Assembly (NCBI GenBank): GCA_965204675.1 | Contig: OZ242003.1 | Span: 3,392,375 to 3,456,374 of the forward strand | Source of the DNA: Vicinamibacterales bacterium | Lineage (GTDB): Bacteria > Acidobacteriota > Vicinamibacteria > Vicinamibacterales > UBA8438 | Direction of reading: 5' to 3' | DNA length: 64,000 nt | In this document: piece by piece, positions 20,696-59,679 of the stretch | How the letters are laid out: every line of letters starts with the position of its first letter | Numbering within the stretch: the stretch's first letter is position 1 | Program-made: the position numbers and the translations under genes | The notes under the pieces: generated by a model | Seen by the model: only the letters and a program-made list of their open reading frames with translations | What the model was told of the DNA's origin: nothing | The model's database searches: none

Positions 20696-20972
20696 CCGGA
20701 CCGAGTCGCGGCGGGCCCTGACGGCGGGCCAGGCCGGCTCCGCAGAACGGCGCGGACGCCTGGAAGGCCGGTTGGGCACCAAGCGGAGGCCGTAGCGCTA
20801 CCTTGCGGTCGCGTTCGGCGACGATTGGGGGCCGGTTCCGGCGCCCGGTGCCGGCCGCGCTCTAGCCTAGTGGTGCGTCACGTTCCAATCTTCGGACACG
20901 GACATGGGTTTACAGCGCGTAATCGTTGACGAATCACATCACCATGCCCGAACATTCAGCCGTGACGCAGCA

Positions 20973-22859: not shown

Positions 22860-22940
22860 CCGGGCAGCAGACGGGGTCGTGGAACGCCGCGGGCTGCCGG
22901 AGGGCTGGCTGGGCGGCGAGCGGAGCCGCAAGGCGACGCT
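22860..22940. repeat. Diverged intergenic copy of the ~85-nt element (family E)
   Basis: GGGCAGC...GTCGTGGAACGCCGCGGGCTGCCGGAGGGCTGGCTGGGCGGCGAGCGGAGCCGCAAGGCGACG aligns with the reverse complement of the imuB copies. Confidence 0.55.
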
Positions 22941-22946
22941 TCCGGG

Positions 22947-39316: not shown

Positions 39317-39442
39317 CGGACCGGGGCGTCCGGTCCTCTCGGGGCGTGGCTGCCGCGTACTCCCGGTGCCTCTTCATGCTCGCGGGGCCATCCTCCCCCG
39401 GCCTCGTTCGTCGTGCGAACAGCGGCGCAAGGTTGGCGAGCT

Positions 39443-39919
39443 TCACGTCGACCGGTGCCGTCCGAAGATTCGGTCGGCAAGGGTCTGCCGGGACAGACGC
39501 TCGACAGCATCCTCGATCAGTCTCTTGATCTCCCTGTCACTGCTCTCGGCTGTTTGGGCCATCGTCCTTCGGATGTCCTTCAGCTCGGACCCGAGGTCGT
39601 CGACGACCGCGAGCTTCGCGCCAATCCGACCGACCTCTGTCTCGATGCGTGCGAGTGATTCCCTCACAGCCGCCGGGTCCGACCGCCGAATCACCTCGAT
39701 GGCGTCTCGGAACGCGAGCAGGGTCTCATGCAGCGCGTCGACCGCCTTTCTGGTTGCATCCGCAACACTCTGGACGTTGGTGTTCGCTTTCTTGAGCCCT
39801 TGTTGGGCGCTCCCAAGGGTCCGCTGTATCGACTCCAGTTGTTCGAGATGCGAGACAACCTCGCCGGCCCGTCGCTCAGTCTCGTTGAGCCGTTCGTGGA
39901 CATCGTCCATCATGTTCAT
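39443..39919 (-). CDS. Coiled-coil hypothetical protein
   Basis: ATG lies 1 nt after the helicase stop. The sequence has heptad-rich helical character throughout. Confidence 0.5.
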   Translation of the reverse strand: MNMMDDVHERLNETERRAGEVVSHLEQLESIQRTLGSAQQGLKKANTNVQSVADATRKAVDALHETLLAFRDAIEVIRRSDPAAVRESLARIETEVGRIGAKLAVVDDLGSELKDIRRTMAQTAESSDREIKRLIEDAVERLSRQTLADRIFGRHRST

Positions 39920-39920
39920 G

Positions 39921-42900
39921 TCAGGCTCCCAACGCCTCCGTTATCTCGCGCGCCTCGTACTCCCGAACCAAGCGTCCCGCCACGCGTTCCAGACGGTCAA
40001 CGACGTTCCGAATTCGTCGCGTGGCCACGATGGCGCGCACGCGAGGGTCGTCGAGCAGAACGGCACGGCGGGAGGTCGGCGGCCCGAGAGAAGCGCAGTC
40101 AGGTCTTTCGTCGGCTAGGTCCAGCAGCGCGATCGTGAGCGCCGGGCCGAGGTCACGCGCGCGCCCCGCTGCGAGGTCGAACAGGCTGTCGATGCTCGAT
40201 TCGATGTCCGCCGGGGGTATCTCATACTTGTAGACGGCGGCGCCGATTGCGGCGTCGATGCCCTTGCGACTGACGGCCTCATCGTGATCCGAGCACATCG
40301 TCTCGGCGACAGCGCGTGTCAGCAGAAGTCCTGGATGATCCGGCTGGGACTCGAGCGCGCGGATGCAGAGACCCCGCAGTTCACCGGCGTCCATCTCGGT
40401 CTGCACCTTGCCGACGAGTTCCCACCACGCCGACAACTCGACCTTCTCGCTCTCCAGCAACTGCTCGATGCGTTCGGCGCCAAGGCCCTCCTGGAGGTAA
40501 TCGAGCAACCGCCTGCGAATGTCCGAATCGCTCACCGCGTGGCGGGCGAGCTGCACCGCCTCCATGATCGCCCGCCGTCTCGAACGCTCGATCTCGTCGT
40601 ACGTGAATTCCACGAGCATTCTGGTCAGAGCGAGCGCCGCTGCGCGCGCCCCGTGCGGGTCGATCGCGTTCGTTCGCCGCACGAATGCCCCCACCTTGCC
40701 GGGCGTCGCTGCGCGCACGTACTCGACCAACCGCTCTCTGCATCGATCGAGGTCGAAAACACCGGCGTGAGTGATGAACTTCTTCCCGCCGAAGTCAACC
40801 TCGTAATCGTGAACGACGCCAAGCTTGAGCAGTTGGTAGATGGCCTTTTCCTTGCGTCTCTTGTCGTCGTCGCCGTCGTACGGGATCTCCCTTCGCAAGC
40901 TCGACGAAAGATCGCCGATCAGGTCGAGCAGCTCTTCGACCGCGCCGACCTCCCGGCTCGCCCCGCTGAACGCCTGCAGGTGGAACCAGAGGGCGCGTGT
41001 CACGTCATCCCCGGTCTTGCGGTCTCCATCGACTTCCTCGAACCGCTCACGGAGTTCATCGAGGGCGAGGTCCGGGTCGGTCAACCGGTCGGAACGGATC
41101 CTGTCGTACTCGGAGAACACGACGATCGACCGCGCGGGCTTGCCGTCCCGGCCGGCGCGGCCGGCTTCCTGGTAGAAGCTCTCGAGCGACATTGGCATGC
41201 CGAAGTGCACCGTGTAGCGAATGTTCGGCTTGTCGATGCCCATGCCGAATGCCTTGGTCGCCACGAGGACGGGAACACGGTTGGTCTTGAAGGCGGCGGC
41301 GTTCCGGCGCTTCTCTTCGTTCCAGCTCCGAGAGCCGTCGCCGCTGTCGGGGGAGGGTGAGGAGCCGCTGTAGACGGTGACCTCCGAACCGGTCGCATTC
41401 TGAACGATGCCGCGGGCATCACGCACACTGTACGTCCGCGCCTTCACCGTCGGCACGAACACGATTCCAGATGCGGTGTCCCGGCCGGCAGCGCGGAAAA
41501 ACTCCGTCCGGGGCAATCCGAACTTCCCCGGCAAGGCGTTCAGCACGCCGCGGAGTGCGGCCCGAGGGTCCTCTTTGGGCGACGTGTGCGCGATCTCGAA
41601 GTGGAGCTCGGGCCGGTCGAACGAATGAGGGCGGACCAGCGCCTCCGAGCGCCCCCGGTCGATGCCGAGATCGGTGAGCATGTCCCGAAGCACTGCGCGC
41701 GAGGCGGTTCCCGTGAGCGCGAGCAGTGGCGGCGGACTCTGCGCCCCGCCTGCGCCGAAACGGCGCAGGTTGTTCCCGAGGTTCAGGTACGCCGGGCGGA
41801 AGTCGTGTCCCCACTCCGAGACGCAATGAGCTTCGTCGATGACGGCGAGATTGACGAGCGAGCACTCTGCAAGCGCCCTCAGGGCCGAGCGGAACTGTGG
41901 CGATTGTAGTCGCTCGGGCGAGTGGAGCACGAACAGGTACTCGCCACGCTCGACCCGCCGCAGCAGGTGTTCGCGTTCGACGCGGTCGATGTCTCCCGTG
42001 AGCGCGACCGCGCGGTCCATTCCGTAGGCGTGCAGGCCCTCGACTTGATCTTCGATGAGCGCGTTGATCGGATCGACGACCAGCGTCAGGCCAGGCATGA
42101 GGAGTCCCGCAAGTTGGTAGATTATGCTCTTCCCGGCGCCGGTCGGCAGCAGGACCACGCAGTCGTTCCGGCGGAGCGCGTTGAAGATTGCCTCGCCCTG
42201 AAAGGGGCGAAAGTCGCGCTTGCGAAACACGTTGCGGAGGAACATCGTGAGCGGCGCACTCGCTTCCCGATAGGTCTGCGGAGCGACGGACCGTCGATGG
42301 TGGTCGAACGACTGCTCGGTCGCCAGCGGTACCGGGACAAACGCCGGACGAATAACGAAATCGGTCCGGCTGTCGTCGGAGAGCGCGTGAAACGGACTCG
42401 ACCGGGGTTCGATGGCGATGTGCACGCGGTCGGCTCCCTGGTCGGCGCCCGCCCTGGAACTGGTCGTCACCGTCCACTCGCCGTACTCGTTGTCCGTGTG
42501 CACCCAAGTGACGGGGGGCTGGTCACCCGCGCGGACAGTGCATGCGGCGGGAATGGAGCACGTGCCGTAGAGCGTGTCGAAGCCGGCGAGTAACACGAGT
42601 GTGTCCAGTACGCCGGCCGTGGCGGGAGCTCCCATGCCGCTGATGTCGATCTCCCAATCCGTACCGGCCGTCAGCCATCCGTACTCGACGGCGCGGGCGA
42701 CGGCGAACTGCACCTTGGCGGCGGCGGCGCAGTCGATGGCGAGCGAGGCGGCGGCCCGGTCATCGTCGGCGACGGGACGGAAGGCGGCGAGCGCCTCGTG
42801 GCACCGAGCGCGGACCCGGTCGAGTGCGGGTCCGTGACCACGCAGGACCTCGGCGTTCGTCACACGAAGGACCTCGATCCCGACGGAGCGCAATAATTCG

Positions 42901-43994
42901 TCCCGCGCCTCGTCGGCCACTGCATCGTGTTCCGGGCCATCGACCTCGATCACGAACGGCGGACCGCCGGGGTGGTTGAAGAGGAAGTCGCAGCGGCGCG
43001 CCCCGCTGCCGTCTCCCAGGCCGCCGGACTCGATCAGTCTGTCCAGCGGGGCCTGCGGCGTGAACCAGTGGCCGGCGGCGGGCTCGAGAGCGGATGGCGC
43101 CCACGCCTTCAGGAACGAAGCCTCGGCATCGCTGCCCAGGAGCGACTCGTCGGCGGAGTCGACGTCGAAGGCGGCATCGAGAACGAAGGGCTCCCGCTCG
43201 ACGGCCATCGACAGGACCGACTCGGGCTTCACACGCAGTCGCGCGGGCAGGCCATCGGAGTCCCAGCCGACTTCGGGGTTGTCCGCGCCGAGTTCGTTCA
43301 CGTGGTCCGCGAAGCCGCGGACGCGCAAGGCCGCGCGTTCGACATCGAGCGTTGCAAGGGGCGCTCGGCCTCTGCGCAGGATCTTGAGGAGAAGGGCGCT
43401 CGTGAAGCGGGAATCCGCCGTGCTGTCACGCACGCGGCCACGGCGGGACAGCAGCAGGCACTGGCTGAGAACTTGCCCCAATCGCGTATCGCGGCGCAGG
43501 AGCTCGTGGAGGACTCCGGGAAGCGCCCCGACGGACACGTACTCGGGCACGAAACCGGGACGCGGCGCAGCGATACCGTCGGTCCATTCAACGGGCAACT
43601 CACGGGATCTTCGTGACGGCTGGCCCGGACGGTCACCGCCATCCTGAGTCAGGGGTCTCGTGACGTCGATGACATCGCCGGGATGGTCCCCGACATCTCG
43701 GGTGCCGCGACAGTCAGGGAACTTCGTGCAACCCCAGAACTTGCCCCCGGCGTTCCGGCCGATTCTGGCCGTGCGCAGCGCCATCGGAGCGCCACACCTG
43801 GGACATGACGGCACACTTGGGACATGACGGCGACTCGGTACGGTGTTCGTTGCCTGCACGGGAGTCGAGCCTCCATCGCTCCGGCGGGTGACTCTCCGCA
43901 CGAGAACGGAGGGGTCATTGAGACGCCGTGGCGGGGCTGCGTTGGCACCCCCGCCCGTTGGGCAGATCGCCCGCAAGGACCCCGTTCGCCTCAC
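39921..43994 (-). CDS. Zinc-ribbon / Vsr(DUF559)-like endonuclease / RecQ-family helicase fusion with long helical C-terminal extension
   Basis: - Zinc ribbon: CPRCGAPM...FWGCTKFPDC (topoisomerase-type C4).
- Endonuclease-like: CDFLF...FVIEVDGPEHD...DELLRSVGIEVLRV.
- Helicase: LLPTGAGKS, DEAHCVSEWGHDFRPAY, LTGTAS, ATKAFGMGIDKPNIRYTVHFGMP.SLESFYQEAGRAGRDG.
- The start codon (GTG 43994) is uncertain. Confidence 0.75.
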   Translation of the reverse strand: MRRTGSLRAICPTGGGANAAPPRRLNDPSVLVRRVTRRSDGGSTPVQATNTVPSRRHVPSVPSCPRCGAPMALRTARIGRNAGGKFWGCTKFPDCRGTRDVGDHPGDVIDVTRPLTQDGGDRPGQPSRRSRELPVEWTDGIAAPRPGFVPEYVSVGALPGVLHELLRRDTRLGQVLSQCLLLSRRGRVRDSTADSRFTSALLLKILRRGRAPLATLDVERAALRVRGFADHVNELGADNPEVGWDSDGLPARLRVKPESVLSMAVEREPFVLDAAFDVDSADESLLGSDAEASFLKAWAPSALEPAAGHWFTPQAPLDRLIESGGLGDGSGARRCDFLFNHPGGPPFVIEVDGPEHDAVADEARDELLRSVGIEVLRVTNAEVLRGHGPALDRVRARCHEALAAFRPVADDDRAAASLAIDCAAAAKVQFAVARAVEYGWLTAGTDWEIDISGMGAPATAGVLDTLVLLAGFDTLYGTCSIPAACTVRAGDQPPVTWVHTDNEYGEWTVTTSSRAGADQGADRVHIAIEPRSSPFHALSDDSRTDFVIRPAFVPVPLATEQSFDHHRRSVAPQTYREASAPLTMFLRNVFRKRDFRPFQGEAIFNALRRNDCVVLLPTGAGKSIIYQLAGLLMPGLTLVVDPINALIEDQVEGLHAYGMDRAVALTGDIDRVEREHLLRRVERGEYLFVLHSPERLQSPQFRSALRALAECSLVNLAVIDEAHCVSEWGHDFRPAYLNLGNNLRRFGAGGAQSPPPLLALTGTASRAVLRDMLTDLGIDRGRSEALVRPHSFDRPELHFEIAHTSPKEDPRAALRGVLNALPGKFGLPRTEFFRAAGRDTASGIVFVPTVKARTYSVRDARGIVQNATGSEVTVYSGSSPSPDSGDGSRSWNEEKRRNAAAFKTNRVPVLVATKAFGMGIDKPNIRYTVHFGMPMSLESFYQEAGRAGRDGKPARSIVVFSEYDRIRSDRLTDPDLALDELRERFEEVDGDRKTGDDVTRALWFHLQAFSGASREVGAVEELLDLIGDLSSSLRREIPYDGDDDKRRKEKAIYQLLKLGVVHDYEVDFGGKKFITHAGVFDLDRCRERLVEYVRAATPGKVGAFVRRTNAIDPHGARAAALALTRMLVEFTYDEIERSRRRAIMEAVQLARHAVSDSDIRRRLLDYLQEGLGAERIEQLLESEKVELSAWWELVGKVQTEMDAGELRGLCIRALESQPDHPGLLLTRAVAETMCSDHDEAVSRKGIDAAIGAAVYKYEIPPADIESSIDSLFDLAAGRARDLGPALTIALLDLADERPDCASLGPPTSRRAVLLDDPRVRAIVATRRIRNVVDRLERVAGRLVREYEAREITEALGA

Positions 43995-44189
43995 GTGAGC
44001 ATCGACAGGAAGGCCGCTCGGCGCAGGATGACCACGGGCTCGCCGAACGTGCGGCCGCGGGTCGGGCCGCAGACGCCGGGCCGCCCGTCAGGCAGTCGCG
44101 ATGGGAAGCCGCGACTCAGCAGACGAATCGCCCTCGTGCCGGTGCTCGCGTGCGTAGCGTGGCACACCGCCGGGGCCGCCACGCGGGAG

Positions 44190-44320
44190 TTCGATCTCGC
44201 CGCCTTGAGCGACGAACTGTTCAACGTCCCGCTCCGGCTACACCGCGGCGGCCGGGCCATGCAGAAGCTGATTCCGACCTCGCGCGGCGCGGCTCGCGTG
44301 GAGATGGCCGAAGCCGTGGG
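44190..44320 (+). pseudogene. Duplicated fragment of the DUF1800 gene 3' region (direct repeat of 37741-37870)
   Basis: ~80% nucleotide identity to 37741-37870. It encodes FDLAALSDELFN...GRAMQKLIPTSRGAARVEM, compared with FDLAALERDELFN...ARAMQKLIPTPRGAARVDM in the intact gene. Confidence 0.75.
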
Positions 44321-44329
44321 TGACGCGCC

Positions 44330-44614
44330 TCAGTCGGACGTTTCCGCCGCGCGCAGCCGGCCCTCGACGTACCGATGCAGCACGCTGGCAATCAGGGTCT
44401 GGTAGGGAATGCCTTCCGACAGGGCCCGTTTCTTCAGGGCATCGAGGTCCCGGCTGGAAATCCTCACGTTCACGCGGCGGTCCTTTCGGAACGTGGCCGC
44501 CGCGTACTCCCGGTGTTGCTTCATCACCTCGGCCTTGTTCCGGGGCGACCGCAGTTCGTTGCGTTCGAACGCATCCACGATCTCCTGTTCCTCCCTAGTC
44601 AGCCGGGCCATCAT
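44330..44614 (-). CDS. brnA: BrnA/CopG-like type II antitoxin
   Basis: RVNVRISSRDLDALKKRALSEGIPYQTLIASVLHRYVEG. Its start overlaps the toxin stop (ATGA-type overlap at 44611-44614). Confidence 0.75.
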   Translation of the reverse strand: MMARLTREEQEIVDAFERNELRSPRNKAEVMKQHREYAAATFRKDRRVNVRISSRDLDALKKRALSEGIPYQTLIASVLHRYVEGRLRAAETSD

Positions 44615-44810
44615 CGTGAGTCTCTCAGATACCGCCGGGTCGCCGCCCGGTTCGGGATGATCGTCTTCAGGAACACCTCGGTCTCGGATTCGACAAACGG
44701 CACCAGGTACGCGTAGTCGTCGACCATGACCACGGAGATCTTCTGCCCCGGGTACCGGTCCTGGTTCGGATGGTCGAAGATGTCGACCTCGTCGCCGTTC
44801 TCGATGTGAA
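44611..44810 (-). pseudogene. brnT: BrnT-like toxin gene, C-terminal part (split by IS21)
   Basis: The minus-strand frame reads ...IENGDEVDIFDHPNQDRYPGQKISVVMVDDYAYLVPFVESETEVFLKTIIPNRAATRRYLRDSR then stop, with no start codon of its own. Confidence 0.75.
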
Positions 44811-44957
44811 TGGTAGCGGCAACATGAAAAGGGACCCCATGGCCACTTGAAAAGGGACCCCCTGAGCACTCGGAAACAGCGGCCCCTGGCGATGATCGAC
44901 GGGGCGAGACACGGTCGTCTCGTCGACCGAGCCAGGAGGGACGCGGAGGTGATCAGG

Positions 44958-46430
44958 ATGACCCAGTGGGCCGAGGTCCGCCACCTGCATCTGGTGGAGG
45001 GTGTGCCGAAGAAGGAGATCGCCCGGCGATTGAAGCTCGACGTCAAGACGGTGCGGCGGGCCATCGGCCGGTCGACGCCACCGGTGCGGGTGTCGCCGCC
45101 GCGGCCCAGCATCCTGGATCCGTGGCGGGAGCGGATCAGGCAGTGGCTGGGCGAGGAGCCGCGGTTGACGGCGAAGCGGATTCGCCGGCTGCTGTTGCCG
45201 TTGGCCGGACCCGTCCCGGCGCGCACGGTGCGCCGCTACGTCGCGGTGCTGCGGGCAGCCACCACGAGGCAGGAGGCCTTCGTGCACCGTAGCGTGCGCC
45301 CCGGGACCACCCTGGAGGTCGACTTCGGCGAGTCGTGGGTCGACATCGCGGGCGTGCCGTGCAAGGTGAAGTACCTGGTGGCGACGCTGCCGTTCTCCAA
45401 CGCGTACTTCGCCAAGGCGTACCCGGTCGAGCGGCTCGAGTCGCTGCTCGACGGCATCGAGTCGGCGTTCCGCTACTACGGGGGCGTGGTGGAGCGCGTC
45501 ATCCTCGATAACACCTCGCTGGCGGTCAAGGACGTGTTGACCGGTCGGGACCGGGTGCAGACCGAGGCGTTCGAGGCGTTCCGGGGCGGATATCCGTTCC
45601 GGGCCGAGTTCTGCGCGCCGGCCAAAGGCTGGGAGAAGGGTTCCGTCGAGTGCGGTGTGAAATACGTCCGGAACCTGGTGTTCCGGCCGCGGCTCGCGGT
45701 CGAGAGCTGGGCGGCCCTCAACGCGGCGATCATCACCGAGCTGGAGGCCGACCTGCCGACGCGCCAGCTCGAGGATGGGCGCCCGGTCGAGGAAGCGTTG
45801 GCGGAGGAGCGCCGGCGCCTGCGGGCGATGCCCGCCCACCTGCCCACCACCTGCCGCGTCGTCGCGCGGGTGGCCGACAAGTTCGGGCACGTCCGCGTGG
45901 ACCGGGTGACGTACTCGGTGCCGATCCGCCATGCCTACCGGCCGGTGTGGGCGAAGCTGTATCACGACCGGGTAGCGATCGCGGTCGGCGCCGAGGTGGT
46001 CGCCGAGCATCGCCGGGCGTTCGTCCGGGGCGCGAAGGTCCTCGATGCGCTTCACGTGCTGCCGTTGCTCGAGCGCAAGCACCGGGCCGTGGCCGAGGCG
46101 ACGGCTCTCCTCGACTGGCGGCTGGCGCCGGTGTGGCAGCAGGCGCGGGCGGAGCTGGCGAAGCACACCCGCAAGCCCGATCAGGAGTGGGTCCGGATGC
46201 TGCGGTTGATGGAGTCGCACCCGGCCACGGCCGTCGAGCGCGCAGTGAGGACCGCGATCGAGCGCCATTCCCCGCGTCTGGAGACGGTGCGGCTCATCCT
46301 CCGACAGCAGGAGGCCGGCCCGCCGCCGGTGTGCCCGCCGGTCTCGGGCGTGCGTCCGGAGCTGGCGCGGATCGCGGTGCCCGCGCCGAGGCTGTCGGCG
46401 TATGACGCGCTGGTGGAGGGCTCCCGCTGA
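44958..46430 (+). CDS. istA: IS21 transposase IstA
   Basis: HTH segment MTQWAEVRHLHLVEGVPKKEIARRLKLDVKTVRRA, a DDE core (LEVDFGE...ILDNTS...KGWEKGSVE) and a GGAGG RBS. Confidence 0.85.
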   Translation: MTQWAEVRHLHLVEGVPKKEIARRLKLDVKTVRRAIGRSTPPVRVSPPRPSILDPWRERIRQWLGEEPRLTAKRIRRLLLPLAGPVPARTVRRYVAVLRAATTRQEAFVHRSVRPGTTLEVDFGESWVDIAGVPCKVKYLVATLPFSNAYFAKAYPVERLESLLDGIESAFRYYGGVVERVILDNTSLAVKDVLTGRDRVQTEAFEAFRGGYPFRAEFCAPAKGWEKGSVECGVKYVRNLVFRPRLAVESWAALNAAIITELEADLPTRQLEDGRPVEEALAEERRRLRAMPAHLPTTCRVVARVADKFGHVRVDRVTYSVPIRHAYRPVWAKLYHDRVAIAVGAEVVAEHRRAFVRGAKVLDALHVLPLLERKHRAVAEATALLDWRLAPVWQQARAELAKHTRKPDQEWVRMLRLMESHPATAVERAVRTAIERHSPRLETVRLILRQQEAGPPPVCPPVSGVRPELARIAVPAPRLSAYDALVEGSR

Positions 46431-47215
46431 TGGCTGCCACGATCACCGAGCCCCCGCATCTGGCCGCGGACCTGAAGGCGCTGTACCTGTCGACGGTCGC
46501 GTCTCAGTGGCGGCCCCTGGCCGAGCAGGCCGTCCGCCAGCGTCAGGCGCCGGCCGACTACTTGGCGCAGTTGGTGCACTTGGAGGTGACCGCACGGCGG
46601 GAGCGCCGCATCCAACGCCGCATCCAGGACGCCCGCTTCCCGACACTGAAGACGCTGGACGCCTTCTCGTTCGAGGCGCAGCCGGACCTCGACCGCGACG
46701 CGGTCCTGCAGGTTTTCGACTGCCGCTTCGTCGCCGAGGCCGCCAACGTCGTGTTCGTCGGCGGGGTCGGCACGGGGAAGACGCATCTGTCCATCGCCTT
46801 GGGGATGGCCTGCTGTCAGCACGACTACCGGGTGCGGTTCGTGACCGCGGCCGAGCTGGTCACCATGCTCGTCGAGGCGCAGCAGCAGGGCCGGCTGGCC
46901 CGCAAGCTCGCCCAGCTTGCCCGCTACGACGCGGTCCACGTCGACGAGCTGGGGTACGTCCCGCTCGACAAGACCGGCGCCGACCTGCTGTTCGGGTTCA
47001 TCAGCGAGCGGTACGAGCGCCGGAGCCTGGTGGTGACGACGAATCTGCCGTTCGCGCGCTGGTCCGAGGTCTTCCTCGACCCGACGGCGGCCGCCGCGGT
47101 CATCGACCGGGTCGTGCACCACGCGACGGTACTGCAGACCACGGGCGGCAGCTTCAGGCTTCAGGCCGCCAAGCGGAACCGGTCGCCGGGCGCCGGCCGG
47201 CGGGGGGGCCGTTGA
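46430..47215 (+). CDS. istB: IS21 helper ATPase IstB
   Basis: Walker A VFVGGVGTGKTHL, Walker B VHVDELGY, and VVTTNLPFARW. The TGATG overlaps istA. Confidence 0.9.
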   Translation: MAATITEPPHLAADLKALYLSTVASQWRPLAEQAVRQRQAPADYLAQLVHLEVTARRERRIQRRIQDARFPTLKTLDAFSFEAQPDLDRDAVLQVFDCRFVAEAANVVFVGGVGTGKTHLSIALGMACCQHDYRVRFVTAAELVTMLVEAQQQGRLARKLAQLARYDAVHVDELGYVPLDKTGADLLFGFISERYERRSLVVTTNLPFARWSEVFLDPTAAAAVIDRVVHHATVLQTTGGSFRLQAAKRNRSPGAGRRGGR

Positions 47216-47532
47216 TGTCTCCGGGGCGCGCGCCTGCTCGACGGCGACTATCTTGCCGGTCGCCGCGGTGGCGACGGGCCGGTCGCGGGAGCATCCGCGG
47301 ATCGGTTGACACCGCCCGTTTCCCCACCGGGGACGGGTTGGTCACGGATGCGCAGGTCGGCGATTTGCGCGGGAAGCGGACGGCGCCGTCCGCGCTACCC
47401 GCCGAGCGCTCTACACGTACACGGCGACCGACGCGGGCCGGGCGACGGCGGGCCCGCCGTCGCCCGGCGTCGTGAACGTCCGGGCGCCGAGCCGCCCGTC
47501 ACCGGTCCGTTACGTAACGGTGCGGAGTGGTC

Positions 47533-47823
47533 ATGGCCTTGACGAACGCGGAGCGGCAGGCGCGTTACCGAGAGCGGCGGCAGGCCGGCGAGTCCCGGGT
47601 CCGGTACCGCCGGCCGGCGGACCGGCGGTCGCGGCCACAGCGGTGGGACGACGCGGTGCGGTCGCTCCTGGCGCTGCAGGACCAGTACCGGGCGTGGCGG
47701 GACGCGTTGCCGGCATCGCTTGCCGGGTCCGCGACCGCGGAGTTGCTCGAGCAGGTCTGCGAGCTGGACCTGTCGGTGCTGGAGGCCGTCGAGCTGCCCA
47801 GGGGCTTCGGGCGTGACGGCTAG
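47533..47823 (+). CDS. Hypothetical passenger protein inside the IS
   Basis: MALTNAERQARYRERRQAG...PQRWDDAVRSLLALQDQYRAWRDALP...ELPRGFGRD, located between istB and the right IS end. Confidence 0.5.
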   Translation: MALTNAERQARYRERRQAGESRVRYRRPADRRSRPQRWDDAVRSLLALQDQYRAWRDALPASLAGSATAELLEQVCELDLSVLEAVELPRGFGRDG

Positions 47824-48152
47824 ACCGCCGGCGACAGCTTCCCCTTGGTGGCCACGAAGCGGAGCCGGCGCCGGCATCCGGGAAGAACGGAGGCCGTCGA
47901 TGATGCTGACCCGGGCTGTCGGGCCCATCAGCATGACCGTGTGCTCGCCGGCGTCAAGGCGCGTCGCTTCGCTCCGCCCCCGCTTCGCGGGGCTGACGGC
48001 CTTGACGCCGGCTGCGCGCACGGTCCCGGGCGAGCCCGCCGACAGCCCGGGAACGCTCAGACAGGGAGGGCCCAGAATCTGATGCGTTGACGGATACTTG
48101 GGGGTCCCTTTTCACGTGGCCACGGGGGTCCCTTTTTCAGTTGCCATTTCCA

Positions 48153-48238
48153 ATGTGAAAGACCACCTCTTCGAACGAGATGCCCCGCTCCCGCTTCAAC
48201 CGGACGTTCTTGGCCGGATCCCAGTTGAAGCGCCGCAC
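48153..48238 (-). pseudogene. brnT: BrnT-like toxin gene, N-terminal part
   Basis: GTG at 48238. VRRFNWDPAKNVRLKRERGISFEEVVFH runs straight into the IS end. Removing the IS and one TSD copy restores one 93-codon frame. Confidence 0.75.
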
Positions 48239-48363
48239 CGCTACAGTCTAGACGAATGGATGCCTGATGTCATCGCTCAATGGCCGCGCCGCAATCGGTC
48301 ACACGGGGCGCCCATTCCCGGCGGGGTCCCGCTGGAGGGGAGAACCGCGAGGGGTTGATCGTC

Positions 48364-48381
48364 GTGATACAAATGTATTAC
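48364..48381 (+). promoter_or_regulatory. Candidate LexA operator (imperfect palindrome GTGATAC-N4-GTATTAC)
   Basis: This is the only AT-rich palindrome in the 150 nt upstream of lexA. It ends 11 nt before the ATG, and the arms match 6 of 7. Confidence 0.4.
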
Positions 48382-48392
48382 ATTCTCCAGCC

Positions 48393-49001
48393 ATGAGCCA
48401 GACACGGGCGGGGCGGACCCGCGACCGGGTGTTCCGGTTCGTTCGCGACCGGCTGCTCGCCGGCGACCCGCCGACGGTGCGCGAGGTGCAGCAGGTGTTC
48501 GGCTTTCGCACGCCGCACACGGCGCGGTACCACCTGGAGAAGCTCGTGGCCGAGCGGAAGCTGTCGGCGGCCCGCGGCAAGGCCCGGGGCTATCGCCTGC
48601 CGATGGGCGGCGAGCCGGCGGCGCCGGTGGGCTGGGTGCCGCTGCTGGGGCGGGTCGAGGCGGGGCGTCCGGCCGAGGCGGTCGAGGACGTCGAAGGCTA
48701 CGTGCCGGTGCCGGCCGACCGGGCGGGGGCGGGGCTGTTCGCGCTGCGGGTGCAGGGGCGCAGCATGGTGGGGGCGGGCATCCTGCCCGGCGACCTCGTG
48801 ATCGTGCGGCGCCAGCCGACCGCCGACCCGGGGGCGCTGGTGGTGGCCCTGGTCGACGGCGAGGCGACGGTCAAGCGGCTGCGCCGGCGGGACGGCCGGG
48901 TGGAGTTGCACCCGGAGAACCCCGAGTTCGCGCCCATCCGGTCCGACCGGGAGATCACCCTGCTCGGCAAGGTCGTCGAGGTGCGCCGCACCGTAGGTTG
49001 A
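48393..49001 (+). CDS. lexA: LexA repressor
   Basis: N-terminal wHTH (PTVREVQQVFGFRTPHTARYHLEKL). Cleavage and catalytic segments VEAGRP, VQGRSMV, GDLVIV and DGEATVKRL. Confidence 0.9.
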   Translation: MSQTRAGRTRDRVFRFVRDRLLAGDPPTVREVQQVFGFRTPHTARYHLEKLVAERKLSAARGKARGYRLPMGGEPAAPVGWVPLLGRVEAGRPAEAVEDVEGYVPVPADRAGAGLFALRVQGRSMVGAGILPGDLVIVRRQPTADPGALVVALVDGEATVKRLRRRDGRVELHPENPEFAPIRSDREITLLGKVVEVRRTVG

Positions 49002-49013
49002 TGGGAATGCGCG

Positions 49014-49712
49014 ATGGCCCGCGCCGCGCTGAAGCTTCCCCCGCGATTGACGGGGCGCCTGGACGCGACCCTGCGACGGGGTGCGCCTGCCTCTCCGGGG
49101 CCCACCGGCGGGCCGCTCCGGTCGTGGCGTCTGGCCGCCCTCGCCGGGCGCCTCGCCGAGCTGTCGAGCCGGGAGGGCGCGGCGGGGCTGACCCTGGCGT
49201 TCTCGCTGGTGCTCGACGCTCAGCGGGCCGGCGAGCCGGTGGGCTGGCTGACGGCTGACGCGAGCGCCTTCTTTCCCCCCGACGTGGCGCGCGGCGGCGT
49301 CGACCTCGACGCCCTGGTCGTCGTCCGGCTGCCGGCGGTCGGGCAGCTTCCGCGCGCGGCCGAGCACCTGGCGCGCTCGGGCGCCTTCGGCCTCCTCGTG
49401 CTCGACCTCGGCGAGGCCGCCCGGGTGCCGGTCCCGATGCAGATGCGCCTGCTCGGCCTGGCCAGAGAGCACGAGTCGGCGGTGCTGTTCCTGACCCGGA
49501 AGGGGGGCGGTGACGTGTCGCTCGGCTCCCTCGTGTCGCTCAGGGCCGAGGCGCGGCAGGAGCCGGCCGTGCGCCAGGAGGTGGTGGGGGTGGGCGCCCG
49601 CCGCGCCGGGGTCACCGACTTCACGTGCACTGCTCAAGTGCTCAAGGACAAGCGGGGCGGACCCGGGTGGAGTCACGTCGAAGTGTGTCGTGGACCGGAT
49701 GGGCTGTGTTGA
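49014..49712 (+). CDS. imuA: ImuA (RecA/SulA-like SOS mutagenesis protein)
   Basis: Sits between lexA and imuB. LAELS...GLTLAFSLVLDAQRAGEPVGWL...FGLLVLDLGE, with the C-terminus KDKRGGPGW...GPDGL. Confidence 0.75.
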   Translation: MARAALKLPPRLTGRLDATLRRGAPASPGPTGGPLRSWRLAALAGRLAELSSREGAAGLTLAFSLVLDAQRAGEPVGWLTADASAFFPPDVARGGVDLDALVVVRLPAVGQLPRAAEHLARSGAFGLLVLDLGEAARVPVPMQMRLLGLAREHESAVLFLTRKGGGDVSLGSLVSLRAEARQEPAVRQEVVGVGARRAGVTDFTCTAQVLKDKRGGPGWSHVEVCRGPDGLC

Positions 49713-49925
49713 CGGGCCGGCGCTGCCGCGCCCGGGTGTTCAAGACGAGCAGGGCGGACCGGGTGGAGTCACGTCGAGGTGTGTCGTGGACCGGATGGAC
49801 GTGTTGACGTGCCGGCGCTGCCGTGCCCGGGTGCTCGAGGACAAGCGGGGCGGGCCCGGGTGGAGTCACGTCGAGGTGTGTCGTGGACCGGATGGCCTGT
49901 GTTGACGTGCCGGCGCTGCCGCTCC
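49638..49925 (+). repeat. Tandem triplication (~96-97 nt units) of the imuA-stop / imuB-start junction
   Basis: Units begin near 49638, 49736 and 49831. Each contains GGACCGGATGG.CTGTGTTGACG.GCCGGCGCTGCCG, with ATGs at 49699, 49795 and 49892. Confidence 0.9.
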
Positions 49926-51871
49926 AGTTGCTGATGCGCCGGCAGCCCGGGTGGGCGGCGCAGCCGGCGGCGGTGGTCGACCGCGATCGGCCGCAGGGGG
50001 TCGTCGAGTGGGTGAACGAGCCGGCCCGCCGGGCCGGGGTGCTGCCCGGCATGTCGTACGCGGCGGGGCTGTCGCTGGCCGATGGGCTGCGCGCGGCCGA
50101 GGTGTCTCCCGGCGACGTCGAGGCCGGCGTCGCCGCGATCGCCGGCCTGCTGCGGCGGTTCACGCCCGGCGTCGAGCCGTCGCGCGCCCGTTCCGGGGTG
50201 TTCTGGCTCGACGCCTCGGGGCTGCAGCCGCTGTTCGCCTCCCTCGTGGACTGGGCGCGCGGGGTGCGGGTTCAGCTTCGGGCGGTGGGGTTCCGGGCAT
50301 GGGTGGTGGTGGGGTTCACCCGGTTCGGCACCTATGCGCTGGCGCGGGCCGGGGGGGAAGCCGCCCGCCGAAGGCCGGATTCCCGCGTCACGGTGCTCGA
50401 CGACGCCGAGCATGCGCGGGCGCGGGCCGGAGGGGAGGCGGCCCGCCGGGGACCGGACGGTTGCGTGGTTGGCGCGACTCGGGGGCCTGGCCCGCCCATC
50501 GTCGCCTTCGGCTCCGCCGGGCGCCCAACCAACCCTGCCAGGAGTCTGCACCGTTCTACGGCGCAGACTCCTGGCCCGCCCATCGTCGCCTTCGGCTCCG
50601 CTGGGCGCCCAACCAACCCTGCCAGGAGTCTGCACCGTTCTACGGCGCAGACTCCTGGCGCAGGCGAAGCGGTGGAAGCGGATCGTCGGCGGGCGGACGG
50701 CGGGGTAACGGTGCTCGAGGACGCCGCGGCCGAGCGGCGGGCGGCCCGCCGCGTCCCGCTGCGCCGGCTCGACGTCGACCCCGCGCTGCGCGACGCCCTC
50801 GACAAGCTCGGGGTCCGCACCGTGGGGGCGTTCCTGCGGCTGCCGGCCGCCGGCGTCCGGCGGCGTTTCGGCCGCGAGGCGCATCGGCTGCACCGCGAGG
50901 CGGCGGGGGACCTGGTGGTCCCTTTCCAGCCCGCGCCGGCGGTCGAGCCGCTCGCGCGCCGCCTCGATCTCGATGAGCCGGAGACCGGGGTCGAGGGCCT
51001 GCTGTTCCTGGTCAAGCAGGCCCTCGACCCGCTGCTCGGGGTGATGGCGTCGCGGCAGGAGGCGTTGGCCGGCCTCGAGCTCCGCCTGCGGCTGGACGCG
51101 CCGGCCGCGGCGCCGCGGGTCGAGCGGGTCGAGAGCATTCGCCCCGCCGCCCCGACCCTCGACATCCGGCAGGTCCTGAACCTCGTGCGTCTGCGCGTCG
51201 AGGGCCTGGCCCGCCAATCGTCGCCTGACGGCTCCGCTGGGCGCCCGACCGACCCGCCGGGAGCCCGCGCCGTTCCACGGCGCAGACTCCCGACCCTGTC
51301 CGCCGGGGTGATCGAGATCGCCCTGGCGGTGACGCCGGCGCGGGCGACCCGCGAGCAGTTGCGGCTCTTTCAGGAGGGGGGGCGGCGTGACCTCCGGGCC
51401 GCGGACCGCGCGGTGGCCCGCATCAGGGCCGAGTTCGGGGACGGTGCGGTGGTGCGGGCGGCGCTCGCCGACGGGCATCTGCCCGAGGCGGCCTTCGCCT
51501 GGCTGCCGCTGGATCACGTCGTGCGCCCGGTCCCCGCCCCGACCGGCGCCCTCTCGCTGGTGCGGCGTCTCTTCGTCGCGCCGCGCCGGGTGCCGTCCCG
51601 GCGGCGGCGCGAGCTGGACGGCCGGGTGTCGGGCGGCGCCGGCCACGATTCCGCGCCGGCCGCGGCGGACCGGGACGCCCATGGTCCGCCGGCAACGGCT
51701 GCAACCGGCCGGGCCGCCGGAATGCGCGGGCCCTACGTGGTGTCGGGCGGCTGGTGGAGAACTCCGGTCCACCGGGAGTACTACTTCGCCAGCGCCGGCG
51801 GGCGCACTTGGCGGTGGATCTACTACGACCGCCGCCGCCGGGCCTGGTTCGAGCAGGGCGCGGTGGAATGA
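49892..51871 (+). CDS. imuB: ImuB (Y-family polymerase-like SOS mutagenesis protein)
   Basis: MACVDVPALPLQLL..., VVEWVNEPARRAGVLPGM, position in the cassette, and the third-copy ATG. It contains three in-frame repeat-element insertions. Confidence 0.85.
   Translation: MACVDVPALPLQLLMRRQPGWAAQPAAVVDRDRPQGVVEWVNEPARRAGVLPGMSYAAGLSLADGLRAAEVSPGDVEAGVAAIAGLLRRFTPGVEPSRARSGVFWLDASGLQPLFASLVDWARGVRVQLRAVGFRAWVVVGFTRFGTYALARAGGEAARRRPDSRVTVLDDAEHARARAGGEAARRGPDGCVVGATRGPGPPIVAFGSAGRPTNPARSLHRSTAQTPGPPIVAFGSAGRPTNPARSLHRSTAQTPGAGEAVEADRRRADGGVTVLEDAAAERRAARRVPLRRLDVDPALRDALDKLGVRTVGAFLRLPAAGVRRRFGREAHRLHREAAGDLVVPFQPAPAVEPLARRLDLDEPETGVEGLLFLVKQALDPLLGVMASRQEALAGLELRLRLDAPAAAPRVERVESIRPAAPTLDIRQVLNLVRLRVEGLARQSSPDGSAGRPTDPPGARAVPRRRLPTLSAGVIEIALAVTPARATREQLRLFQEGGRRDLRAADRAVARIRAEFGDGAVVRAALADGHLPEAAFAWLPLDHVVRPVPAPTGALSLVRRLFVAPRRVPSRRRRELDGRVSGGAGHDSAPAAADRDAHGPPATAATGRAAGMRGPYVVSGGWWRTPVHREYYFASAGGRTWRWIYYDRRRRAWFEQGAVE
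50486..50653 (+). repeat. Two tandem 84-nt copies of element E, in frame within imuB
   Basis: CCTGGCCCGCCCATCGTCGCCTTCGGCTCCGC.GGGCGCCCAACCAACCCTGCCAGGAGTCTGCACCGTTCTACGGCGCAGACT occurs twice. It encodes PGPPIVAFGSAGRPTNPARSLHRSTAQT twice. The hairpin is GGAGTCTGC-N13-GCAGACTCC. Confidence 0.9.
51205..51290 (+). repeat. Third, diverged copy of element E in imuB
   Basis: CCTGGCCCGCCAATCGTCGCCTGACGGCTCCGCTGGGCGCCCGACCGACCCGCCGGGAGCCCGCGCCGTTCCACGGCGCAGACTCC, translated as LARQSSPDGSAGRPTDPPGARAVPRRRLP. Confidence 0.8.
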
Positions 51872-52045
51872 AACCGCGGCGGAACGAGCCGATCAGGATC
51901 TGCCATGGCCGCGCTGCCGGGGCTGGTCGAGCAGGGCGCGGTGGAATGAAACCGCGGTGGAACGAGCCGCGGTGATGCCGAGCCGCGGTGGTGGAACGAG
52001 CTGCGGCGGAACCGCGGTGGAAAACGAGCCGGGTGGAAGCGGGCC
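51844..52045 (+). repeat. 78-nt tandem duplication of the imuB stop junction plus ~5 copies of a CCGCGGTGGAACGAGC motif upstream of dnaE2
   Basis: GAGCAGGGCGCGGTGGAATGAAACCGCGG.GGAACGAGCC occurs at 51851 and 51929. Motif copies lie near 51873, 51952, 51983 and 52012. Confidence 0.85.
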
Positions 52046-52048
52046 GAG

Positions 52049-55000
52049 GTGGAGACGTACGCGCCGCTCTGGTGCAAGAGCAACTACTCGTTTCTGGAAG
52101 GCGCCTCCCATCCCGAGGAGCTGGTCGAGCAGGCCCACGCCCTGGGCCTGCCCGGCCTCGCGCTGACCGACCGGGACGGCGTGTACGGCATCGTGCGCGC
52201 CCACGTGCGGGCCCGCGAGCTCGGCGTGCACCTGATGTGCGGGGCCGAGCTGTCGCTGGACGGCGGGGCGAAGCTGGTGCTGCTGGCCACCGATCGCGCC
52301 GGCTACGCCAACCTCTGCCGGCTCGTCACCCGCGGCCGACGCCGGCACGCCAAGGGCGAGTGCAGCGTCACCGTGGACGAGGTCTGCGGGCACGCCGCCG
52401 GGCTGCTGGCCCTCTGGCCCGGCGCCCACTGGGCGGCCGAGGCCGACGCCGCCCGCGACCGCCCGGCTCTGGCCGCGCTCCGCGACGCCTTCGGCGACCG
52501 GGCTTGCGGGCTGCTGGCGCGCCACCGCCTCGCCGCCGAGGCCCCGCGGGAAGGGTGGCTGCGGGCGCAGGCCCAAGAGATAGGTCTGCCCCTGGCGGCG
52601 GCGACGGAGGTGCTCTACCACGACCCGGCCCGCCGTGACCTCCAGGACGTGCTGACCTGCATCCGGCACGGCGTCAGCCTCGCCCGGGCGGGGCGCCGCA
52701 TCCGCGCCAACGCCGAGCATGGCCTGAAGGCGCCGGCCGCCTTCGCCGAGCTGTTCCGCGACGACCCCGGCGCGGTGGCGCGCACGGTCGAGATCGCGGC
52801 CCGGTGCCGCTTCTCGCTCGCCGAGATCCGCTACCGCTATCCGTCCGAGCGCCTGCCCGACGGCGACACCTCGTCGAGCTGGCTCCGCCGGCTCGCCGAG
52901 GAGGGGGCGCGGCGGCGCTTCGGGGGCCGCGTCCCCGCCGCGGTGCGGACGCAGATTGCGAAGGAGCTGGCCCTCATCGACGAGCTCGACTACTGCGGCT
53001 ACTTCCTCACCATGTGGGAGATCGTCGAGTTCTGCCGCCGCCACGGCATCCTCTGCCAGGGGCGGGGGTCGGCCGCCAACTCGGCCGTCTGCTACTGCCT
53101 CGGCATCACCGCCGTCGACCCCACGCGGGTCGATCTGCTGTTCGAGCGCTTCCTGTCGCGCGAGCGGGCCGAGCCGCCCGACATCGACCTCGACATCATG
53201 CACGAGCGGCGGGAAGAGGTGATTCAGTTCGTCTACGAGAAGTACGGGCGCGACCGGGCGGCGATGGTCGCCAACGTCGTCCGCTACCGCGCCCGCTCGG
53301 CCGTGCGCGAGGTGGGGAAGGCGCTGGGGCTGCCCGAGACCGCGGTCGACCGGCTCGCCAGGCGGCTGTCCCACCACGATGCCGTCGACGGGGACACGGT
53401 GCGGCAGGTGCTCGACGGCGAAGGACCGGCGGCGGCGCACCTCGTGCGACTCGCCGGCGAGATCCGGGACTTTCCCCGCCACCTGTCCATCCACCCCGGC
53501 GGCTTCCTGCTGGGCCACGAGCCGGTGCACGACCTGGTGCCGATCGAGAACGCGGCGATGCCCGGACGCACCGTCATTCAATGGGACAAGGACGACCTGG
53601 AGGACCTCGGGCTGTTCAAGGTCGACCTGCTGGGGCTGGGGGCGCTGACCCAGCTCGACCTGTCGTTCGGGCTGCTGGCGCGGCACTACGGCCGCACCCT
53701 GTCGATGGCCGCGATTCCGGAGGGGGACGAGGCCACCTACGACATGATCTGCCGCGGCGACACCGTCGGCGTCTTCCAGATCGAGAGCCGGGCGCAGATG
53801 GCGATGCTGCCGCGGCTCAGGCCGCGCAGCTACTACGACCTCGTCATCGAGGTGTCCATCGTCCGGCCGGGGCCCATCACCGGCGGGATGGTGCACCCGT
53901 ACCTGCGGCGGCGCAACGGGGAGGAGGCGGTGGCCTACCCCCACCCGTGCCTCGAGCCGGTGCTCGCGAAGACGCTGGGGGTGCCGCTGTTCCAGGAGCA
54001 GGTGATGCAGCTCGCGATGGTCGCGGCCGACTACACCCCCGGCGAGGCCGACCAGTTGCGGCGCGACATGGCGGCGTGGCGGCGCAGCGGGCGCATCGAG
54101 CGCCACCACGACCGGCTCGTCGGCCGGATGACGGCCAAGGGCATCGCCCCCGAGTTCGCCGAGCGGGTGTTCGGCCAGATTCGCGGCTTCGGGGAGTACG
54201 GGTTCCCCGAGAGCCACGCGGCCAGCTTCGCCCTCATCGCCTACGCCACGTCCTGGCTGCGGTGCCACTATCCCGACGTCTTCACCTGTGCGCTGCTCAA
54301 CGCGCAGCCGATGGGGTTCTACGCGCCGGCCACCATCGTCGACGACGCCCGGCGGCACGGCGTCGACGTGCGCCCGGTCGACGTCACCTGCAGCGGCTGG
54401 GACTGCACCCTGGAGCCGGCCGGGACGCCGTCTTCTCCGGCCCCGGGGGCGGGCGGGTCGGCGGGGCCGGTGAGGCCGGGGCGGACCAGCGCCGCCTCAC
54501 CACCGCGACGCTCGTCACCCGACGCGCGTCATTCCGACCGCCGGCAGCGCGTTGACGCTAGCGCCGCCTCACCACCGCGACGCTCGTCACCCGACCGACC
54601 CGCCGGAAGCCCGCGCCATCTCCGGGGACGGCGCGGTTCCGAGGAGCGGAAGCCCGGGTTCGCGGTGCGGATGGGCCTGCGGTACGTCAAGGGGCTGTCC
54701 GAATCGCGCGACTGGGCCCGCATCGAGGCCGCCCGCGGGCGAGCGCCGTTCGGCTCGGTCGCCGACTTCGTGGCCCGGACCGGCCTCGACGAGAAGATGG
54801 CGGGCCGGCTCGCCGAGGCGGGGGCGCTGGCCGGTCTCGAGCGGCGGCGCCGCGACGCGCTCTGGCAGGTCCGCGGCCTCGTCCGTGCGCTCGCGCCGGT
54901 CCTGCCGCCCGGGGCCGCGCGGGACGAGACCCCGGGGTTCGACGACCTCGATCCGGGCGAGACCATCGCGTGGGACTACCGCACCAGCGCGCACAGCCCG

Positions 55001-55369
55001 CGCGGCCATCCCCTCGCCGCCCTGCGGGCGCAGCTCGGGGCCCGGGGCCTCCCCGACGCCCGCACCGTCTCGGCGATGCGCGACGGGCGGAAGACGCGCT
55101 ACGCCGGGCTCGTCATCTGCCGCCAGCGTCCCGGCACCGCGGGCGGGGTCGTGTTCATGACCCTCGAGGACGAGACCGGGTTCGTGAACCTGGTGGTCTG
55201 GAGCCGGGTGTTCGACGAGCATGCCCTGGTCGCCCGGACCGCGTCGTTCCTCGGCGTGACCGGCAGGATCCAGCGGGCGGGCGGCGTCGTCCACCTCGTC
55301 GCCGACACGCTGTGGCGCCCCGAGCTCGACACGGGGCCGAACGCGGTCGGCAGCCGGGACTTCCACTAG
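52049..55369 (+). CDS. dnaE2: Error-prone DNA polymerase DnaE2 (ImuC)
   Basis: PHP domain ([17 protein letters not shown]; [11 protein letters not shown]), the pol III alpha core ([19 protein letters not shown]) and an OB fold at the C-terminus. GTG is the first canonical in-frame start after the stop at 51947. Confidence 0.9.
54488..54640 (+). repeat. Direct repeat (2 x 36 nt, 72-nt offset) plus right half of element E, in frame in dnaE2
   Basis: AGCGCCGCCTCACCACCGCGACGCTCGTCACCCGAC occurs at 54488 and 54560. It is followed by CGACCGACCCGCCGGAAGCCCGCGCC, as in the 51205 copy. It encodes [11 protein letters not shown] twice. Confidence 0.75.
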
Positions 55370-55429
55370 GAGCCCTGCACCGTGTTGTCCTTCAACCCTT
55401 TTAAAACAAACACTTTAAGATGATCTGGA

Positions 55430-59542: not shown

Positions 59543-59590
59543 CGGTCCGTCGACCCGGACGCAGCGCATCTGCATCCTGCGGCGCAGCCT

Positions 59591-59679
59591 CCTGGCCCGC
59601 CAATCGTCACCTTCGGCTCGGCTGGCGCCCAACCAACCCTCCACGAGTCCACGCCGTTCTACCGCGCAGACTCCTGGCC
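59591..59679 (+). repeat. Copy of element E overlapping the 3' end of the symporter gene
   Basis: CCTGGCCCGCCAATCGTCACCTTCGGCTCGGCTGGCGCCCAACCAACCCTCCACGAGTCCACGCCGTTCTACCGCGCAGACTCCTGGCC. The reverse strand supplies codons G-Q-E-S-A-R and the stop. Confidence 0.85.

Follow-up and report, generated by a model that had tools for sequence, protein, structure and literature searches.

We analyzed a 64-kb stretch of the genome of a Vicinamibacterales bacterium (contig OZ242003.1, hereafter the window; GC = 72%), in which imuB, the inactive Y-family polymerase gene of a lexA-imuA-imuB-dnaE2 cassette, contains two tandem 84-nt units in-frame. Very probably, these units are copies of a non-autonomous mobile element of small size that abounds in Vicinamibacterales, targets CTAG at stop codons and is seldom found in-frame within genes. 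Members of the same family were present or absent at orthologous sites with identical flanks, carried a direct repeat on their two sides, preferred CTAG, lay mostly at stop codons and were depleted inside genes.

Tandem 84-nt units in imuB

The imuB open reading frame (ORF; 49823-51871, + strand) was identified by the Pfam IMS domain (PF00817), by orthologue alignment and by its GC content at third codon positions (GC3, 0.89). Its true start is likely the GTG at 49883, where the predicted N-terminus VDRMACVDVP matches that of the orthologues. In the gene order of the cassette, lexA (48267-48998), imuA (49014-49709), imuB and dnaE2 (52049-55366), Pfam gave S24/LexA, a weak RecA-like match, IMS and the full DnaE domain set, which identifies the host gene as imuB. 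The synteny of the cassette is kept in four relatives.

Tandem Repeats Finder reported a repeat at 50486-50659 with a period of 84, 2.1 copies, 98% match and a score of 341. An earlier note on this DNA had described tandem 84-nt units in-frame in imuB at 50486-50653; this was borne out, as was a boundary repeat, CCTGGC, around the units. Unit a (50486-50569, + strand; ImuB residues 222-249) consists of a 4-nt target repeat, CTGG, and the 80-nt element. Unit b (50570-50653, + strand; residues 250-277) is its tandem duplicate with one mismatch by blastn, and a closing flanking direct repeat, CCTGGC (50654-50659, + strand), is present as a single copy in the empty site of a relative (L002). Each unit reads PGPPIVAFGSAGRPTNPARSLHRSTAQT in the imuB frame, twice in succession over residues 222-277. 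The in-frame imuB inserts are presumably translated, and the predicted junction peptides include GATRGPGPPIVAFGSAGRPTNPAR and VEGLARQSSPDGSAGRPTDPPGAR.

Each unit folds into two hairpins. Hairpin 1 of unit a (50488-50527, + strand) is imperfect in the fold and is repeated 84 nt downstream in unit b. Hairpin 2 (50537-50575, + strand; second copy 50621-50659) is a 39-nt palindrome, GCCAGGAGTCTGCACCGT-TCT-ACGGCGCAGACTCCTGGC, with 18-nt arms and a 3-nt loop, and its 3' arm takes in the flanking CTGG. The 9-bp-stem hairpin proposed earlier is real, but it is longer than was claimed, and the unit has a second hairpin in its 5' half. The 90-nt unit RNA had a folding energy of -50.3 kcal/mol, compared with -30.1 ± 3.2 for shuffled sequences (z = -6.3), and the hairpin pattern occurred 5 times in the window versus 0.08 expected from shuffles.

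We compared the imuB sites with those of orthologues, whose proteins range from about 500 to 634 aa. At site 1 (flanks VVGATRG / PGAGEA), two units are present in the window, one in P0001 (94% identical) and none in P0002, P0003, P0010 and P0011. At the DNA level, two relatives (L115 and L040) carry one unit of exactly 84 nt with CCTGG on either side, while the empty site of L002 reads GGGGG-CCTGG-TGCAGG, with CCTGG once. Site 2 (LRVEGL / TLSAGV) holds the third imuB copy of the window (51205-51288, + strand), which is read in another frame as ARQSSPDGSAGRPTDPPGARAVPRRRLP (residues 463-490) and is older than the site-1 units. This 28-aa insert was found in nine aligned orthologues (P0001-P0008, P0017) and not in the rest, being missing from P0010-P0015 and from P0020 onwards, and the DNA of L114 has an empty site. 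Four ImuB proteins (P0017, P0020, P0029, P0032) carry, a few codons upstream of site 1, one or two units of SPRRSTARTPGGLVGRQAESSGDDWRAR, which at the DNA level is the element reversed (nhmmer E = 1e-21). The P0073 ImuB (contig CBDCCO010000007.1, the source of L026, L030, L044 and L078) has no insert, although its genome, a more distant one, carries the element.

Since orthologous sites are filled or empty with identical flanks, the ImuB segments are insertions, and the sites with 0, 1 or 2 units agree with the earlier proposal of an insertion in place of an ancestral linker. These alignments indicate that ImuB was entered at least three times independently and that two of the inserts then probably expanded locally.

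Between units a and b the identity is 99%, whereas neither exceeds 90% against any other copy in the window. The member units of arrays elsewhere share private variants. Because of this sharing, the 99% identity and the single unit in the nearest relative, we infer that the second imuB unit arose by local duplication between the flanking repeats and not by a fresh insertion; the structure alone fits both.

We examined where the inserts fall in an AlphaFold model of ImuB, built on the orthologue alignment. The search of PDB sequences gave no solved ImuB structure, so the mapping depends on this model, which is poor overall, with a mean predicted local distance difference test (pLDDT) score of 58.5. 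Confident parts are the palm (23-165), the helix-hairpin-helix (301-360) and the C-terminal half. pLDDT falls below 50 over 164-299 and 468-487, with confident helices and strands around; the latter segment sits between a helix (448-466) and a strand (491-507). These low-confidence segments are the regions of the inserts (residues 222-277 and 463-490), placing the ImuB inserts in predicted disordered loops, the outcome of the comparison of loops with cores that had been suggested for this protein. The insert in dnaE2 lies just beyond the part alignable to solved structures of Pol III alpha (the PDB alignment ends at residue 781), at a site that, by comparison with the E. coli alpha sequence, looks like a hairpin loop before the helix-hairpin-helix domain. 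Disordered loops of this kind may be what makes the inserts tolerated.

The imuB region is prone to local tandem duplication. A 97-nt tandem repeat (49638-49925) spans the end of imuA and the start of imuB and reiterates the first 13 imuB codons; it behaves as a variable-number repeat, with 3 copies in the window and L002, 2 in L001 and 1 in L114. Just 5' of the element, a 78-nt tandem duplication of host sequence (50334-50457) in imuB is shared with L002 and L115 and is single in L114 and L001. Another 78-nt duplication (51849-51969) repeats the imuB stop region and is found only in the window.

The element family and its target site

We scanned genomes at the species level, with one genome per species and a pattern with 25 specified bases. 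The pattern matched at least 111 stretches in at least 22 genomes, and among the matches listed every one came from a metagenome-assembled genome named Vicinamibacterales, Vicinamibacteria, Vicinamibacteraceae or Acidobacteria. An nhmmer profile then gave 241 copies in 113 loci (0.9 Mb), 205 of them near full length, which formed 156 insertion blocks; 33 of the 156 are direct arrays of 2-5 units. Measured from anchor to anchor, the modal length of the element is 80 nt. In a longer variant, hairpin 1 is extended by 22 nt, and other variants carry 20-110 extra nt. The element is small, of high copy number and without coding capacity of its own.

An alignment of 120 copies showed compensatory change in both hairpins. 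In hairpin 1, one pair changes from C:G to A:T in 38 of the copies, and the outer pair of hairpin 2 changes from A:T to G:C in 12. A search of the whole window against Rfam at the gathering threshold gave no match, and an E-value search of 50300-51400 returned nothing beyond microRNA-like matches attributable to chance.

The flanks of the copies gave the logo CTA|G...C|CTAG, beyond which the signal equals background. In the 5' flank, C, T and A reach 87%, 81% and 69% at their places, and G takes the first place in 9%. Among solo copies, the top flank pair is CTAG with CTAG (15 copies), the chief alternatives being CTGG and CCAG. The 5' and 3' flank trinucleotides are identical in 41 of 82 copies, compared with 24 by permutation. 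An 80-nt element together with a 4-nt flanking repeat means that each insertion adds 84 nt, or 28 codons.

CTAG is rare in the window, occurring 14 times where base composition predicts 162 and a Markov estimate 57. The occurrences are mostly at TAG stops, for example the ends of dnaE2 and of the genes ending at 3697, 5389, 6069, 47823 and 56543. For the location of copies, we used the 144 blocks that were not selected through imuB. A gene 3' end adjoins 107 of these, and in 78 the stop codon of a flanking gene is inside the element, 70 gene ends using the boundary CTAG and 12 the TAG of the hairpin loop. Certain copies occupy the complete spacer between successive genes. As CTAG is avoided and survives mainly as C plus a TAG stop, most copies lie flush with a stop codon or supply it.

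At one orthologous site in three genomes (L056, L095 and L097), the element is the entire intergenic spacer, with the upstream gene stopping within the boundary TAG and the next gene's ATG directly at the other end.

Known systems and competing explanations

The element shares features with several known repeats. Di Nocera, De Gregorio and Rocco (2013; PMC3733652) reported that repetitive extragenic palindromic sequences (REPs) are found mainly after unidirectional and convergent genes, and that the GTAG termini of REPs often supply the TAG stop to flanking ORFs. A minority of REPs lie entirely inside ORFs, many of them for proteins of DNA synthesis and repair including DnaE2, and such intragenic REPs occur in Xanthomonas, Thauera, Stenotrophomonas, O. 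terrae and others, with several high-GC proteobacteria among them (PMC3733652). The phenomenon is therefore already known, also in high-GC genomes, contrary to the novelty that the earlier note had suggested for such lineages.

The likeness of our family to REPs and to REP doublets forming hairpins (REPINs) extends to high copy number, GC-rich palindromes, a location mostly past gene ends, a terminus that gives the TAG stop to the neighboring ORF, a minority in-frame in genes including dnaE2, and tandem clusters. As in REPs, extragenic sites near gene 3' ends prevail, and the 107 of 144 blocks above are of this kind. However, the tag is CTAG here and not GTAG, consistent with the scarcity of G in the first place of the 5' flank. 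The repeated unit has 80 nt and two unrelated hairpins, whereas REPs are single palindromes of 20-40 nt or pairs of one REP; hairpin 2 by itself is a palindrome of 39 nt. A target-derived flanking repeat is present as well.

MITEs (miniature transposable elements with inverted repeats) of the IS630/Tc1 or IS5 group resemble the element in being small, non-coding and numerous, with a CTAG-type target and a short flanking duplication. IS630 targets CTAG and duplicates TA, IS5 duplicates 4-bp YTAR, and examples of MITEs are Correia, RUP and Nezha. The empty and filled states of imuB site 1 and the excess of matching flanks (41 vs 24) are those of a target-site duplication, but the element differs from MITEs in having no terminal inverted repeats. 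Elements derived from IS200/IS605, which are moved by an HUH Y1 transposase, insert 3' of a fixed tetranucleotide, make no target duplication, have two hairpins that resemble each other and are strongly biased in orientation relative to replication. They share with our family the subterminal hairpins, the tetranucleotide target and the lack of terminal inverted repeats, whereas here the flank is duplicated even at the non-consensus CTGG of site 1, and the orientation bias is a modest 63:37.

Mycobacterial interspersed repetitive units (MIRUs) are units of ~50-100 nt in a high-GC host, in variable direct tandem arrays between operon genes, with ends that overlap stop and start codons. Our family is like them in its direct arrays, its high-GC host and ends on stop and start codons (L056, L095 and L097). 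Long palindromes or a CTAG target are not known for MIRUs. We searched the literature and found no description of this family, nor of its host group, duplicated CTAG flanks, an 84-nt direct-array module or ImuB as a repeated recipient.

In the mobile-element explanation that we favor, the element would integrate at CTAG or at a near-cognate tetranucleotide such as CTGG, leaving a 4-nt direct repeat on its flanks. One copy would have entered the palm-thumb linker of ImuB at site 1 and would then have been duplicated, by slippage or by unequal exchange between the flanking repeats, to give two units; an older copy would have settled at site 2, in a loop of the C-terminal half.

Several points weigh against this explanation. 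No mobilizing enzyme was found, as a tblastn search with an E. coli REP-associated tyrosine transposase (RAYT), a Y1 transposase whose gene REPs typically flank, gave no match in 0.97 Mb of loci and the window, although this blank is not evidence of absence, because the query was unverified and the sample small. Nor was an autonomous partner found, since no element halves lay 0.5-3 kb apart in the sampled loci. The element has no terminal inverted repeats, its ends GCCCGCCAATCG and GAGTCTGCGCCGT being unrelated and its palindromes internal only. A flanking duplication usually goes with a DDE transposase that requires such repeats. In addition, hairpin 2 has an internal arm that covaries with the 3' tetranucleotide, which is not expected of a pure target-site duplication: an internal CTAGG occurs only with a 3' CTAG (12/12), and CCGGG occurs with CCGG in 8/12. 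The census is biased, as the 8-kb loci were selected by the exact 25-nt pattern, which favors young and conserved copies, and genes were defined by GC3 periodicity instead of a gene finder. The presence of two units in imuB rather than one comes from one assembly, and translation of the inserts into protein is predicted from open frames.

Orientation of the copies relative to the local GC-skew sign in the 8-kb loci was 63:37 (p = 0.002). As a sign of single-strand transposition, this bias is modest and confounded with gene orientation.

We would allow a small chance that the element moves by a mechanism not yet described, for which amber stops are safe landing sites, and that its recurrent in-frame capture by the mutasome proteins ImuB and DnaE2 is linked to translesion or repair proteins. 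Such a mechanism is suspected because the element has no terminal inverted repeats, yet pairs a duplicated CTAG-type tetranucleotide into its terminal hairpin. If true, the capture by ImuB (three independent events) and DnaE2 may not be accidental, as Di Nocera et al. hinted in 2013 for REPs within genes of repair.

Selection for a hairpin function, by which the imuB copies would be kept for pausing, attenuation or stability in the imuB-dnaE2 mRNA or DNA, is improbable. The compensatory changes do maintain both hairpins family-wide, the element elsewhere sits at mRNA 3' ends like REPs, and at site 2 the internal arm and the 3' flank changed together, from CCAGG/CCTGG in L001 to CCGGG/CCCGG in L002. 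However, covariation is expected anyway if mobility needs hairpins, the orthologous site-2 copies are not independent observations, and many relatives with the same operon have no copies in imuB.

A specialized colonizer of protein-coding genes, with its length and open frames under selection, was suggested by the likeness to Rickettsia palindromic elements (RPEs). These are reportedly palindromic repeats of ~100 nt that are inserted in-frame and translated as extra peptides at tolerant sites. In favor of such a specialization are a length that is a multiple of 3, five of six unit frames that are open, and in-frame copies in imuB (the three independent events), dnaE2, a thioester reductase gene and a Uma2-like nuclease gene. 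Five different frames are in use across these copies, imuB site 1 being read in frame +1, site 2 in +2 and the thioester-reductase copy in +3. We classified the blocks by their GC3 periodicity and by whether the frame was open to the left and right. In the unbiased sample, 2 of 144 blocks were in-frame inside a gene, whereas the proportion for positions drawn at random from these loci was 47%; the two blocks were in imuB (L040) and in the Uma2-like nuclease gene (L110). This means that copies are not enriched within genes; on the sampled loci the family is depleted there. The target, CTAG at stop codons, also speaks against a preference for coding sequence.

Stop-free reading is common for random sequence as well. 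When 84-nt stretches of the window were taken at random, 75.5% were stop-free in a random frame and 54% were open in at least five of six frames, so that openness is no more than chance at this GC, and the observation that copies are always read without stops loses its meaning; it is also inexact, given a symporter gene that ends at the hairpin-loop TAG (59659-59661). Of the RPE comparison, what stands is a dispersed palindromic repeat that can enter genes in-frame at tolerant protein sites; the gene preference does not, with intragenic copies at ~1%, and the CTAG stop-codon target, the lineage and the base composition all differ. We consider a dedicated gene colonizer improbable as well. Insertions within genes at CTGG-like sites would persist only if the frame is kept, no stop is introduced and the loop is tolerant; a length of 84 nt would keep the frame automatically, and freedom from stops is likely at this GC. 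In-frame survival is enabled by the 84-nt length, the composition and selection against all other outcomes.

Thirteen blocks had been thought to lie in disrupted genes, with a shared frame and a stop between. On translation, they turned out to be adjacent genes with the element filling the spacer.

It is very improbable that the second imuB unit was created in assembly, by collapse or expansion of a tandem in long-read or metagenome data. The window is one assembly, its closest relative carries one unit, and the 97-nt and 78-nt tandem duplications lie in the same cassette. On the other side, the two units differ by one base, direct arrays of 2-5 units occur in many independent assemblies, and the 97-nt repeat varies between 1 and 3 copies in relatives like a real variable-number repeat.

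An ancestral low-complexity ImuB linker that other lineages lost can practically be dismissed, for although the palm-thumb region is hypervariable in length among close relatives, the same 84-nt sequence stands at >200 unrelated loci, relatives whose proteins are 90-94% identical vary, between the same flanks, by exactly 0, 1 or 2 units, and distant ImuBs of ~500 aa have nothing there, which already refutes it.

Taken as copies of a mobile element, the inserts would account for much of the variation in protein length seen in ImuB, DnaE2 and others among abundant but poorly known soil bacteria, and the 28-aa blocks, being repeat-derived, should not be annotated as domains. The choice of a tetranucleotide that is avoided except at stops would make the element near-harmless in a compact high-GC genome. 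ImuB, with its three independent insertions and two local expansions, joins the unexplained bias of intragenic palindromic repeats toward replication and repair genes. The copy number of arrays could mark strains in Vicinamibacterales metagenomes.

Further copies and other repeats in the window

An nhmmer profile and blastn gave five strong copies in the window (the two imuB units, 51205-51288, 8512-8598 and 59590-59678) and two weak ones. The thioester-reductase copy (8512-8598, - strand) lies in-frame, in the third frame used, within a PP-binding/thioester-reductase gene (6725-9784, - strand). It forms a 28-aa insert immediately after the NAD_binding_4 domain. Apart from the window, only one relative, 97% identical (P0121), has this insert, and 15 other orthologues are without it.

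The symporter copy (59590-59678, + strand) is at the 3' end of an SSF sodium:solute symporter gene on the opposite strand (59659-61236, - strand). The gene extends 17 nt into the element, which supplies its last 6 codons (GQESAR), and its TAG stop at 59659-59661 is the loop of hairpin 2. In four syntenic relatives, the symporter gene is without the element and has a TGA stop instead.

A degenerate in-frame copy in dnaE2 (~54566-54658, + strand) was recognized by alignment and by nhmmer on the orthologous stretch of L002 (E = 1.8e-8). A partial duplication at 54494-54556 in the same gene is specific to the window. The dnaE2 loop at 54425-54658 is hypervariable, with PPRRSSPD twice in the window and other inserts in L001 and L114, and the dnaE2 of L115 (2227-5679) has a ~45-aa duplication of host sequence. 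At the end of dnaE2 (55366-55385), CAC-TAG is followed by GAGCCCTGCACC, which is similar to how the reversed element starts (CTAGGAGTCTGCGCC). Directly 3' of dnaE2, four relatives carry the reversed element in full, and GAGCCCTGCACC may be the remnant of that copy.

The two weak copies are both on the - strand and degenerate. One (20737-20828) is of the long variant, with 22 extra nt in hairpin 1, and is intergenic between convergent genes. The other (22876-22941) is just past the stop of an alpha/beta-hydrolase gene (22947-23834, - strand) and ~150 nt upstream of the likely start of a PQQ dehydrogenase gene, as judged from a signal-peptide start. The related copies in other genes and in intergenic DNA, read in various frames, that the earlier note had listed were thus recovered, but this last one is intergenic owing to its position upstream of that start and does not lie within the PQQ dehydrogenase gene.

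Two additional in-frame inserts of the thioester-reductase gene are lineage-specific, one of 84 nt (6743-6826, - strand) and one of 60 nt (9383-9442, - strand). The former adds 28 aa at the C-terminus and has 70-83% matches in L093 (three times), L041, L048 and L107; it is probably a member of a second repeat family. More tandem repeats were found at 13561-13735, 17026-17259, 5397-5580, 8004-8143 and 10530-10614, with periods of 68, 116, 20/38, 15/30 and 18 nt, respectively, several of them within ORFs, and short tandem duplications seem to be frequent in this genome overall.

Upstream of the cassette, an IS21-family insertion sequence (44818-48146) contains an istA-like gene (44847-46427, PF22483) and istB (46430-47212, PF01695). 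Its ends carry 23-nt tandem motifs with AAAAGGGACCCC in inverted orientation (44818-44876 and 48100-48146). About 9 kb (39300-48200) between a DUF4143 ATPase gene and lexA is missing from the syntenic L001 and L114. This segment holds the IS21 element and a 1357-aa ORF (39924-43994, - strand) with DEAD helicase, DUF559 and topoisomerase zinc-ribbon domains and a lower GC3 of ~0.8, and is probably acquired DNA.

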